Shown here: in pieces, positions 3,570 through 61,133 of the stretch
Layout: each line of letters starts with the position of its first letter
Position numbering within the stretch: the stretch's first letter is position 1
Source of the DNA: Stegostoma tigrinum
Lineage: Eukaryota
Length of the DNA: 64,000 nucleotides
Assembly: GCF_030684315.1 (NCBI RefSeq)
Contig: NC_081384.1
Span: 15,290,818 to 15,354,817, forward strand
Direction: 5' to 3'
The notes under the pieces: generated by a model
Seen by the model: the letters and a program-made list of their open reading frames with translations, nothing else
Told to the model about the DNA's origin: nothing
Database searches by the model: none
Program-made: the position numbers and the translations under genes

Positions 3570-3979
3570 GACAACAAAATGTGAGGCTGGATGAACACAG
3601 CAGGCCAAGCAGCAACTCAGCAGCACAAAAGCTGACGTTTCGGGCCTAGACCCTTCATCAGAGAGGGGGATGGGGTGAGGGTTCTGGAATAAATAGGGAG
3701 AGAGGGGGAGGCGGACCGAAGATGGAGAGAAAAGAAGATAGGTGGAGACAAGAGAGTTGCAATGGGAGAGAGATTCCCTGAGGTTGGTCCGGAGGGAGGA
3801 GGGTAACTTCTTCAGGTTAGGCATCCCTGGAAGAGGCTTCGCAGTGAGGTTAAAATAGTATCAGAGATAATGGGAACTGCAGATGCTGGAGAATCCAAGA
3901 CAACAAAATGTGAGGCTGGATGAACATAGCAGGCCAAGCTCCAAGACAACAAAATGTGAGGCTGGATGAACTCCAAGAA
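3570..3979 (-). mobile_element. Short internally deleted Penelope-like element
   Basis: Near-identical to the terminal segments of the PLEs at 24560-24764 and 58596-58780; three copies of acaacaaaatgtgaggctggatgaac. Confidence 0.85.
3631..3663 (-). ncRNA. Minimal hammerhead ribozyme motif (intact core)
   Basis: Minus strand CTGATGA-A-GGGT-CTAG-GCCC-GAAA-C-GTC: CUGAnGA and GAAA core, 4-bp stem II, palindromic ACGU stem III, GUC triplet. Confidence 0.75.
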
Positions 3980-4864
3980 GACAACAACATTTTACCTGCT
4001 CAGACATAGTATCAAAAGTGAAATAAATGTACTGTTCAGCAGACCATCTATGAAGAAGGCTCAAATGAAATTGATCAAGAAACACAATAAGGCAACTGTT
4101 TTTGGTAACTCAGTGGATTTAGTTTACATATTTGAACATTTAACAAAACCTAACTTCTCTCACCAAAATATTAGGCAGGTGCTTTTAGCACAAAGACATA
4201 GGAGTTTAAAGGTTAAAAAAAAGGCTAATTACCTTCAAACCACATCAAGCTGTTTGGCCATCCGTCATCTCACAGCTTAAAAATCTTACCAAAGGTTGCA
4301 TGAATATAGTGAGTACGCTAAATTTGTAGACAAGATCACCAATAAATGTAACATATGTAAAAAAAAGGACACCATCATGACCCATAGTTGATCTCCCAAT
4401 AGCAAGAAACTTGAAATGATGAGTAGCAAAGCAGTTGAAGATGCTGAGATAAGGGGAAAAAAATTCTCATTTTGTACTTCATAGGCATAGCAATCAGTCT
4501 ACAAAAACGTACAGTACAAGTTAATGGAGAAATGGATAAGGACCAGACTGAAAATATCAGGTAAACTCTTGTCTGGGGAGAATTTGCCAATGATGAAGTT
4601 AGGGACATGTTGGAAATTATGAACACTTTGGAATGAACGTGGTAACAGAAAGTCCCTTTAGTAACAATTCTGTAAAATGAATCACATGGTAATAATTGAG
4701 ATGCTTCACAAAATCCTTGCTGAACAACAATATTGTAAATTAACCAATTTATAATTAATGGACAATCCATGTAACAAACTCATATGGAGACTACAGTCTA
4801 TATTAATTGTTTTTTTGGGGACACATCCATTGATTCCTTTGCAAATAAGCAATTGTCCCTCTGT

Positions 4865-5070
4865 TTAGAACATAGGAATGTGATAGGCCAGTTGGCTCAT
4901 CCAGTCCGCTCCACCATTCAATAAGATCATGGCTGAGCATTTTTGTAGACTGAGCTCCACTTAGCCATCTGCTTGCTATAACACTTAATTCCTTTATTGT
5001 TCAAAAATCTATCTGCCTTTTCCTTAAAAACATTCAATGTAGTAGTCTCAACTGCTTCACTGGGCAGGAT
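4865..5070 (-). mobile_element. CR1 3-prime end fragment
   Basis: Reverse similarity to the CR1 3-prime UTR (ccaccattcaataagatcatggctga). Confidence 0.7.
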
Positions 5071-58595: not shown

Positions 58596-60834
58596 AATAA
58601 AATGTGAGGCTGGATGAACACAGCAGGCCAAGCAGCATCTCAGGAGCACAAAAGCTGATGTTTCGGGCCTAGACCCTTCATCAGAGAGGGGGATGGGGAG
58701 AGGGAACTGGAATAAATAGGGAGAGAGGGAGAGAGGGGGAGGCGGACCGAAGATGGAGAGTAAAGAAGATAGGTGGAGAGAGTGTAGGTGGGGAGGTAGG
58801 GAGGGGATAGGTCGGTCCAGGGAAGACGGACAGGTCAAGGAGGTGGGATGAGGTTAGTAGGTAGCTGGGGGTGCGGCTTGGGGTGGGAGGAAGGGATGGG
58901 TGAGAGGAAGAACCGGTTAGGGAGGCAGAGACAGGTTGGACTGGTTTTGGGATGCAGTGGGTGGGGGGGAGGAAGAGCTGGGCTGGTTGTGTGGTGCAGT
59001 GGGGGGAGGGGACGAACTGGGCTGGTTTAGGGATGCAGTAGGGGAAGCGGAGATTTTGAAACTGGTGAAGTCCACATTGATACCATATGGCTGCAGGGTT
59101 CCCAGGCAGAATATGAGGTGCTGTTCCTGCAACCTTCGGGTGGCATCATTGTGGCACTGCAGGAGGCCCATGATGGACATGTCATCTAGAGAATGGGAGG
59201 GGGAGTGGAAATGGTTTGCGACTGGGAGGTGCAGTTGTTTGTTGCGAACTGAGCGGAGGTGTTCTGCAAAGCGGTCCCCAAGCCTCCGCTTGGTTTCCCC
59301 AATGTAGAGGAAGCCGCACCAGGTGCAGTGGATGCAGTATACCACATTGGCAGATGTGCAGGTGAACCTCTGCTTAATGTGGAATGTCATCTTGGGGCCT
59401 GGGATGGGGGTGAGGGAGGAGGTGTGGGGACAGGTGTAGCATTTCCTGCGGTTGCAGGGGAAGGTGCCGGGTGTGGTGGGGTTGGAGGGCAGTGTGGAGC
59501 GAACAAGGGAGTCACGGAGAGAGTGGTCTCTCCGGAAAGCAGACAGGGGAGGGGATGGAAAAATGTCTTGTGGTGGGGTCGGATTGTAAATGGCGGAAGT
59601 GTCGGAGGATAATGCGTTGTATCCGGAGGTTGGTAGGGTGGTGTGTGAGAACGAGGGGGATCCTCTTGGGGCGGTTGTGGCGGGGGCGGGGTGTGAGGGA
59701 TGTGTTGCGGGAAATACGGGAGACGCGGTCAAGGGCGTTCTCGATCACTGTGGGGGGAAAGTTGCGGTCCTTAAAGAACTTGGACATCTGGGATGTGCGG
59801 GAGTGGAATGTCTTATCGTGGGGGCGGAGGCGGAGGAATTGGGAATAGGGGATGGAATTTTTGCAGGAGGTGGGTGGGAGGAGGTGTATTCTAGGTAGCT
59901 GTGGGAGTTGGTGGGCTTGAAATAGACATCAGTTACAAGCTGGTTGCCTGAGATGGAGACTGAGAGGTCCAGGAAGGTGAGGGATGTGCTGGAGATGGCC
60001 CAGGTGAACTGAAGGTTGGGGTGGAAGGTGTTGGTGAAGTGGATGAACTGTTCGAGCTCCTCTGGGGAGCAAGAGGCAGCGCCGATACAGTCATCAATGT
60101 ACCGGAGGAAGAGGTGGGGTTTGGGGTCTGTGTAGGTGCGGAAGAGGGACTGTTCCACGTAACCTACAAAGAGGCAGGCATAGCTGGGGCCCATGCGGGT
60201 GCCCATGGCCACCCCCTTAGTCTGTAGGAAGTGGGAGGAGTCAAAAGAGAAGTTGTTGAGTGTGAGGACGAGTTCAGCTAGGCGGATGAGAGTGTCGGTG
60301 GAGGGGGACTGGTCGGGCCTACGGGATAGGAAGAAGCGGAGGGCCTTGAGGCCATCTCCATGCGGAATGCAGGTGTACAGGGACTGGACGTCCATGGTGA
60401 ATATGAGGTGTTGGGGGCCAGGGAATTGGAAGTCCTGGAGGAGGTGGAGGGCGTGGGTGGTGTCACGGATGTAGGTGGGGAGTTCCTGGACCAAATGGGA
60501 GAAAATGGAGTCCAGATAGGTGGAGATGAGTTCGGTGGGGCAGGAGCAGGCTGAGACGATGGGTCGACCAGGGCAGACAGGTTTGTGGATTTTGGGAAGG
60601 AGATAGAAATGGGCCGTGTGGGGTTGGGGAACAATGAGGTTGGAGGCTGTGGGTGGGAGGTCCCCTGTGGTGATGAGGTCGTGAATGGTGTTGGAGATGA
60701 TGGTTTGGTGCTCGGGTGTGGGGTCATGATCGAGGAGGCGGTAGGAGGTGGTGTCGGAGAGTTGGCGTCTGGCCTCGGCGATGTAGAGGTCAGTGCGCCA
60801 TACTACCACTGCGCCACCCTTGTCTGCGGGTTTG
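58596..60834 (-). mobile_element. Penelope-like retroelement, RT + GIY-YIG, 5-prime truncated, frameshifted
   Basis: IKPADKGGAVVVW, YLLPKIHK, GRPIVSAC, MDVQSLYT, GVAMGTRMGPSYACLFV, RYIDD, then [18 protein letters not shown]; frameshifts near 59860 and 59570; TSD atgtttgat 58587-58595 / 60835-60843. Confidence 0.96.
58654..58686 (-). ncRNA. Minimal hammerhead motif
   Basis: CTGATGA-A-GGGT-CTAG-GCCC-GAAA-C-ATC. Confidence 0.65.
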
Positions 60835-60914
60835 ATGTTTGATCAACTTTAATCGGACGTCAATAGAAGGACCAAAGAGCAGATTAGAGTAGTGCATCAG
60901 ATTAAATATATTTT

Positions 60915-61133
60915 GAGATAATGGGAACTGCAGATGCTGGAGAATTCAAAGATAATAAAATGTGAGGCTGGATGAACACAGCAGGCCAAGCAGCATCTCA
61001 GGAGCACAAAAGCTGACGTTTCGGGCCTAGACCCTTCATCAGAGAGGGGGATGGGGAGAGGGAACTGGAATAAATAGGGAGAGGGGGGGAGGCGGACCGA
61101 AGATGGAGAGTAAAGAAGATAGGTGGAGAGAGT
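60915..61133 (-). mobile_element. Solo PLE terminal segment with HHR
   Basis: Near-identical to 58596-58783 plus the gataatgggaactgcagatgctgg extension. Confidence 0.9.
61012..61044 (-). ncRNA. Minimal hammerhead ribozyme motif (intact core)
   Basis: CTGATGA-A-GGGT-CTAG-GCCC-GAAA-C-GTC. Confidence 0.75.

Follow-up and report, generated by a model that had tools for sequence, protein, structure and literature searches.

The hammerhead motifs dispersed over a window of 64,000 nucleotides (nt) from the shark Stegostoma tigrinum (contig NC_081384.1, positions 15,290,818 to 15,354,817; G+C content 40%) are very probably decayed genomic copies of the terminal repeats of five repeat families, four of which are tied to the coding remains of Penelope-like elements (PLEs) and one of which is likely to be of the same kind. 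Each family carries a minimal type I hammerhead that is predicted, in the active parent element, to cut its RNA as a dimer, likely with the help of a protein. An initial annotation of this DNA had listed 13 sites and described them as a dense complement of about 12 ribozymes in 64 kb. Twelve of the 13 do hold a motif or the remnant of one, with stem II as originally given; the remaining site, near 62460, was missed by a covariance model, lacks a blastn partner and is unconfirmed. The picture of a dense complement did not survive, as the window holds two intact motifs and about 10 fossils.

The motifs themselves are real and lie far above chance. The descriptor used here comprises the core CUGANGA, 0-1 extra nt, the G10.1-C11.1 pair, a stem II of at least 4 base pairs (bp), GAAA-NN-UH with the palindrome, and a stem I of at least 2 bp. 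It matched the window twice with no deviation (3661- and 61042-), six times with at most one deviation and eight times with at most two; minus-strand sites are named here by the position of C3 (3661-, 9664-, 32932-, 36895-, 58684- and 61042-), the numbers in the initial annotation being their low ends. The same descriptor returned no match in any of six block-wise dinucleotide shuffles, and at its loosest setting a single match in one of the six. A covariance model trained on eight of the sites recovered 58684- and 61042- with E-values of about 1e-8, 9664- with 0.091 and 3067+ with 3. Its matches outside the listed sites (7 of 19 rows) have E-values of at least 0.59 and, the flanks of two having been inspected, were all taken as chance. 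A search of the window with Rfam (E<=10) gave six weak matches, none of them to a hammerhead.

Of the 13 listed sites, two (3661- and 61042- only) retain an intact core and palindrome, while four have an intact core with an altered palindrome (24640+, AUGU; 32932- and 58684-, ACAU; 28175+, ACCU), five have changes in the core (36895-, 52645+, 44200+, 3067+ and 9664-), one (37976+) has lost stem III and the cut site by deletion, and one is the unconfirmed site. The complete core CUGANGA ... GAAA-N-N-U-H is thus found at six of the 13 sites and lesions at 11. Eleven sites were parsed manually and 9664- was read separately; all of the former have an extra nucleotide between A9 and position 10.1, and the 10.1-11.1 pair is G-C in ten of them and G-U in one. 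Stem III had been described initially as a loopless palindrome, ACGU or AGCU. Such a palindrome (15.1-16.1) is indeed present, as ACGU twice and AGCU once, but it is perfect in only three of the 11 parsed sites, and AGCU is limited to 52645+, whose core bears two changes. Helix I has 2 bp in the family here called A and at least 5 bp in 28175+ and 36895-.

In every defining feature the motifs agree with the minimal hammerheads described from the pseudo-long terminal repeats (pLTRs) of metazoan PLEs by Cervera & de la Peña (2014, PMC4209133), whose consensus comprises CUGANGAH, the G10.1-C11.1 pair, the palindrome and NUH. The type I core, the extra nucleotide between 9 and 10.1, the loopless palindrome and the occurrence of several covarying families per genome are shared, as are truncated single copies and pairs on opposite strands. 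The layout of family A is nearly that of the Neptune motif of Acropora (Fig. S3 of the same paper); its 2-bp helix I and 4-bp helix II lie at the short end of the published range. The assignment of minimal type I hammerheads to several PLE families is accordingly upheld, both by this consensus and by the remains of reverse transcriptase (RT) and GIY-YIG endonuclease that adjoin the motifs. The suggestion that the complement is unusual is not, about 4,000 motifs in the coelacanth and 9,000 in Xenopus, with 6-8 families per genome, having been reported in that paper. The kind of motif was already described in 2014; sharks are a new host group for it, and the copies are mostly fossils. No shark term occurs in the two supplement files of PMC4209133 that were searched, and a literature search found no report of PLE minimal hammerheads in sharks, though a 2026 retrozyme survey includes one chondrichthyan (10.64898/2026.07.22.740005).

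The five sequence families comprise two of Neptune type (A and B), two of Poseidon type (D and E) and one that lacks a clade assignment (C), PLE clades being assigned by motif and similarity. Seven of the 13 sites lie in insertions with PLE coding remains detected by tblastn, and four further sites belong to families A and B by blastn; family C is unlinked. Five short non-coding pieces look like 5'-truncated or inverted PLE ends, some of them with target-site duplications. Three of nine insertions tested have such duplications (12 bp and exact in two, 13 bp with one mismatch in the third), and in a random background one of 300 window pairs scored 11 and none 12. In their C-terminal GIY-YIG domain, 5' truncation, inverted arms and optional tail the insertions resemble the Neptune and Penelope/Poseidon elements of Craig et al. 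(2021, PMC8557442), from which they differ in that no full-length PLE, with an intact open reading frame (ORF) between two terminal repeats, is present in the window.

Family A includes five copies (3661-, 24640+, 32932-, 58684- and 61042-) with the stem II GGGU/GCCC and a 2-bp stem I. At 60836-59064 and 23835-24284 it adjoins RT and GIY-YIG together with a CX4CxxC linker; the linker, CNRRKCYTC, precedes the GIY-YIG match in the ORFs 58917-59744 and 23814-24551, and Pfam matches to RVT_1 and GIY-YIG, both under curated cut-offs, occur in the window. By the order RT, CX2-5CxxC linker, GIY-YIG, which is the criterion of PMC8557442, family A is of Neptune type as judged from its sequence; conversely, no linker precedes the family D endonuclease, as in Penelope/Poseidon. 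All five copies cross the cut site and end at +64, +64, +100, +101 and +104, counted from the first base after the cut, and in contigs of the same organism (run X1, which may derive from the source sample) 1196 records exit family A at +64 into unlike flanks. In family A about 138 nt separate the cut from the ATG that follows it. The interval 58593-61130 was considered as a full-length element with pseudo-long terminal repeats (pLTR-ORF-pLTR) and rejected: about 70 nt of other DNA set the 217-nt solo piece (61130-60914) apart from the ORF copy, whose reading frame is 5'-truncated, beginning at residue 437 of the homologue P0314, and frameshifted. The 5' boundary of the solo piece (61130) and that of another family A piece (3748) both fall 87-88 nt upstream of C3. 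Run-off at a fixed RNA 5' end at this point was also considered and is unsupported, as X1 shows no step in depth there (4.4-6.0 million in three bins over 58756-58908 versus 6.8 million in the hammerhead bin, one bin being skipped as repeat) and the X1 rows listed include no loose end at that distance. The features discussed are collected in Table 1.

Table 1. Hammerhead motifs, insertions and host gene in the window
Feature	Positions	Strand	Support or context
Decayed family E hammerhead; overlaps the final codons of a putative Poseidon-type ORF	3067..3100	+	P0315 C-terminus by eye; model E 3
Family A insertion of several pieces	3570..3985	-	13-bp target-site duplication, 1 mismatch
Intact family A minimal hammerhead (C3 to H17), stem I 2 bp	3634..3661	-	Descriptor, parse
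Old family B element	9572..13733	mixed	RT remains 12168-11000 (-), inverted arm 12449-13733 (+)
Family B decayed hammerhead, 3' end of old Neptune-like element	9637..9664	-	Covariance model E 0.091
Host BECN1, 11 coding exons	18474..40532	-	tblastn
Family A hammerhead, AUGU; ends 5'-truncated copy 23850-24764 with GIY-YIG	24640..24667	+	Antisense in BECN1 intron
Family B hammerhead in short fold-back rearrangement; stem I of 5 bp, ACCU in place of the palindrome	28175..28210	+	Antisense in BECN1 intron
Short 5'-truncated family A copy; hammerhead with ACAU in place of the palindrome	32905..32932	-	Sense in BECN1 intron
Single inverted insertion, probably Poseidon-type, both family D motifs outward-facing, endonuclease remains	36781..38036		Exact 12-bp target-site duplication
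Family D hammerhead (C3U, ACUU)	36862..36895	-	Sense in BECN1 intron
Family D hammerhead without stem III and cut site	37976..38004	+	BECN1 intron, antisense
Family B decayed hammerhead, 2 core changes	44200..44231	+	Covariance model, parse
Family C hammerhead, AGCU, 2 core changes	52645..52673	+	In fold-back insertion 52536-52727
5'-truncated Neptune-type PLE copy: RT, CX4CxxC linker, GIY-YIG, 3' untranslated region (UTR), hammerhead, 64-nt tail	58593..60836	-
Family A hammerhead with ACAU in place of the palindrome; cut predicted between 58657 and 58656	58657..58684	-
Intact family A hammerhead in 217-nt solo piece (61130-60914)	61015..61042	-

The closest match of the family A RT is a Chiloscyllium protein with 81% identity. 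After it, the next relatives of the RT at 59745-60842 (-) show 57-66%, marine invertebrates 54-58%, a salamander 42% and a turtle 40%; on these similarities, horizontal transfer of the lineage is possible. A search with the RT gave no viral locus, and a 21-base tail pattern had one chance match in metagenomes and none in viral contigs.

Stem II is GRGUC/GACYC in family B, which appears to be of Neptune type only by similarity of its decayed RT and endonuclease. The inverted arm of its old element includes RT and endonuclease as well as another hammerhead remnant, near 13661, and a palindromic tail piece lies at 9895-10034. In the fold-back at 28134-28210 the last base of the minus-strand piece is H17, after which comes the 5' strand of stem I; the ACCU lesion is present in both pieces. 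The fold-back insertion of family C (52536-52727) is flanked by an exact 12-bp target-site duplication. Families D and E are probably of Penelope/Poseidon type, E by its last codons only. The former, with the stem II GUUAC/GUAAC, forms an inverted pair with endonuclease, its ORFs 36939-37484 and 37590-37979 (homologues P0315 and P0317) encoding a GIY-YIG that lacks the Zn-finger linker. U4G5A6 of the family D core doubles as an ORF stop (36889-36895 - and 37976-37984 +), and an AUG made up of A9, the extra U and G10.1 opens 36 codons through the tail, whose end lies about 110 nt later. A similar arrangement is found in Poseidon of Anolis carolinensis (Frangieh et al. 2024, PMC11167929), whose ORF begins at stem II, with reverse transcription initiated 111-118 nt in. 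Because a protein search with the 36-codon frame did not confirm an N-terminus (three matches, one of them examined, none shown as a PLE N-terminus), the proposed start codon rests on the analogy with Anolis. Beyond the sites initially listed, families D and B are represented by hammerhead or tail remnants at 54008-54097 (-), 13661-13733 (+) and 9895-10034.

Stem covariation lies between families: as had been stated initially, the stem II sequence varies while its pairing is kept (GGGU/GCCC, GGGUC/GACCC, GGGGC/GCUCC and GUUAC/GUAAC). On the alignment 79.6% of pairs are formed versus 55.1% in shuffled controls, figures that lean towards structure since the alignment is model-fitted and includes weak matches. 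Among the family A copies none of 55 core positions has changed, compared with 8 of 250 in the tail and 3 of 10 CpG positions in the palindrome, where three copies have a single CpG transition each. The palindrome changes represent decay at a position that the dimer needs, and inserted copies decay neutrally. Core conservation among young copies, as proposed in the initial annotation, is ill-posed as a refutation, because inserted copies decay neutrally and selection is visible only between families.

Taken together with the published model, in which PLE hammerheads cleave as dimers through the palindrome and do so weakly in vitro (PMC4209133), these observations suggest the following course of events. 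When a parent transcript carries two terminal repeats, their palindromes (ACGU or AGCU) would pair with each other as helix III and the RNA would be cut after H17. The RT of the element would begin at an internal point of the RNA, which in family A lies about 64-69 or 100-104 nt downstream of the cut and in family D about 110 nt past the AUG of the hammerhead. It would copy back through the uncut hammerhead and mostly stop early or switch template, so that the resulting insertions would be short, inverted or composed of several pieces. The motif would be under selection in the parent lineages, giving covariation between families, and the inserted copies would then decay neutrally. In Anolis, likewise, discrete tail ends and copies across the uncut hammerhead are found, cleavage is protein-assisted and uncut RNA is the main insertion template (PMC11167929); by analogy, the window copies that cross the cut site fit this picture. 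Family A differs from Anolis Poseidon in having its hammerhead about 138 nt upstream of the ATG.

Several results weigh against the interpretation of the motifs as terminal repeats with a dimer-cutting hammerhead. Family C lacks coding remains in the window, and five of the nine insertions tested have no target duplication above the random background, that at 58.6-60.8 kb being borderline (score 9). The absence of core changes in family A compares with about 1.8 expected, which is too few to test selection either way. In predicted folds the 2-bp stem I of family A has a pairing probability of 0.0, with CUGAUG pairing with CGUCAG instead, and the active dimer reaches -5.5 kcal/mol versus -22.8 for two folded monomers, though nearest-neighbour energies omit tertiary contacts; the value for the intact motif at 61042 paired with its 58684 neighbour is +0.3. 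Unaided cleavage by family A is, on these predictions, likely to be poor. The blocking hairpin is located at 3628-3667 (-) and 61009-61048 (-), and the same CUGAUG/CGUCAG complementarity is seen by eye in the Acropora Neptune motif (PMC4209133, Fig. S3).

A trace of cleavage might nevertheless be preserved in the genome. Among 12 of the 189 junction rows of the X1 contigs, five have the short-tail end (58593/58594) as their destination. Three of the five depart from 58656, the base that immediately follows the predicted family A cut; their summed depths of 298, 251.8 and 148.2 rank first, third and fifth among those 12 rows, and the other two rows leave from 58638 (42.4) and 59085 (92.2). In element sense, a tail end at the inferred RT start, with junction letters matching the native tail at +65 to +67, +68 or +69, is joined to a piece from +1. 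One of the three forms is also readable as +2, and none of the three junctions shows microhomology with the bases before +1. It is possible, if doubtful, that these junctions are a fossil record of in vivo cutting by the Neptune-type hammerhead, the RT having copied cut RNA to the ribozyme-made 5' end and jumped to a second template at its start site (+67 to +69). This reading has to contend with the facts that the three forms may descend from one event and that depth is not copy number, that 58656 is absent among the six X1 loose-end rows listed, and that the pieces of the 3570-3985 insertion begin at about +24, +37 and later. No published copies starting at a hammerhead cut site were found in a literature search, most subscription papers being outside its reach. 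The repeat content is very high (259,297 contig records on 1.5 kb in X1).

One alternative regards the family A motif as vestigial or as a fold with a non-cutting role: its 2-bp stem I and self-blocking hairpin would render it inert, and its conservation would reflect protein binding or promoter or translation signals. The predicted inactive hairpin and weak dimer of family A favour this view, as do the overlap of the family D core with stop and start codons and, in Anolis, the lack of effect of hammerhead mutants on insertion in vitro and of RNA ends at the cut site (PMC11167929). Yet the Anolis hammerhead was cleaved after protein was added (PMC11167929), variants with a helix I of 2 bp are on record from Drosophila virilis and Culex (PMC4209133), and junctions restarting exactly at +1 are present in X1, whereas Anolis shows no RNA ends at the cut; on balance we regard the alternative as unlikely. 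The retrozyme-like derivatives proposed initially fare worse. Non-LTR (non-long terminal repeat) retrozymes would carry many of the motifs as short non-coding units cut at both ends, circularised and copied by PLE enzymes, and a 329-nt circle, copied over more than its full length, would have given rise to the 3570-3985 insertion. That insertion, in the order repeated tail ends, tail with ORF codons 1-26 (3824-3747), 3' UTR end, hammerhead and 64-nt tail, does show a 329-nt spacing between tails, a junction of ORF codon 26 with the 3' UTR and an intact hammerhead. It further recalls non-LTR retrozymes (PMC7229834; 10.64898/2026.07.22.740005) in its type I hammerhead, PLE-derived terminal sequence and scale of about 330 nt, the single chondrichthyan of the 2026 survey having such retrozymes with a mean consensus length of 363 bp. 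The working definition of a retrozyme in the sources covered, however, requires two or more tandem units in succession, every one of them with a complete hammerhead, whereas none of the five tandem arrays in the window has a hammerhead, self-blastn found no such units, and seven of the 13 sites lie within PLE insertions. Only one hammerhead is present in the 3570-3985 insertion, and its additional, reiterated tail ends suggest template jumps; its codon-26/3' UTR junction is absent among the six X1 loose-end rows listed (3103 further); and published retrozymes mostly have canonical rather than minimal hammerheads. Template jumping is the simpler account of 3570-3985, and the retrozyme origin appears improbable.

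The host gene BECN1, whose mean identity to all eight cartilaginous-fish beclins tested is 88.7-93.9%, has five of the motifs in its introns, three antisense and two sense, with one tail end about 47 nt from an exon edge as placed by tblastn. The idea that the host kept some motifs to cut or tune BECN1 pre-mRNA is nonetheless barely conceivable, since both sense copies are damaged (32932-, ACAU; 36895-, C3U and ACUU) and neither of the two intact motifs falls within the coding span of BECN1.

Elsewhere, the predicted host proteins P0316, P0319 and P0324, whose genes include MAP3K7 and CUEDC2, contain Poseidon-type PLE pieces that are either exonised or mis-predicted; the third host protein is presumably arrestin-like. 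Other repeats in the window include a 480-nt pair with 95% identity and further copies, one pair of them inverted (1385-1864, 61845-62324, 35549-35715, 38127-38299 and 55806-56204); we take the 480-nt pair, from its look, to be the 3' end of a CR1-type long interspersed nuclear element and the remaining repeats to be like short interspersed nuclear elements.

The interpretation of the motifs as decayed PLE terminal repeats adds sharks, as a catalogue entry, to the hosts of PLE minimal hammerheads. The high repeat content makes this genome suited to counting insertion ends against the cut site, that is, to establishing whether cut RNA serves as a template. Should the tentative reading of the +1 junctions be true, a genome-wide peak at +1 would constitute direct genomic evidence for cleavage, of a kind not found in the Anolis RNA reads, and the role of the hammerhead in PLEs would become countable.

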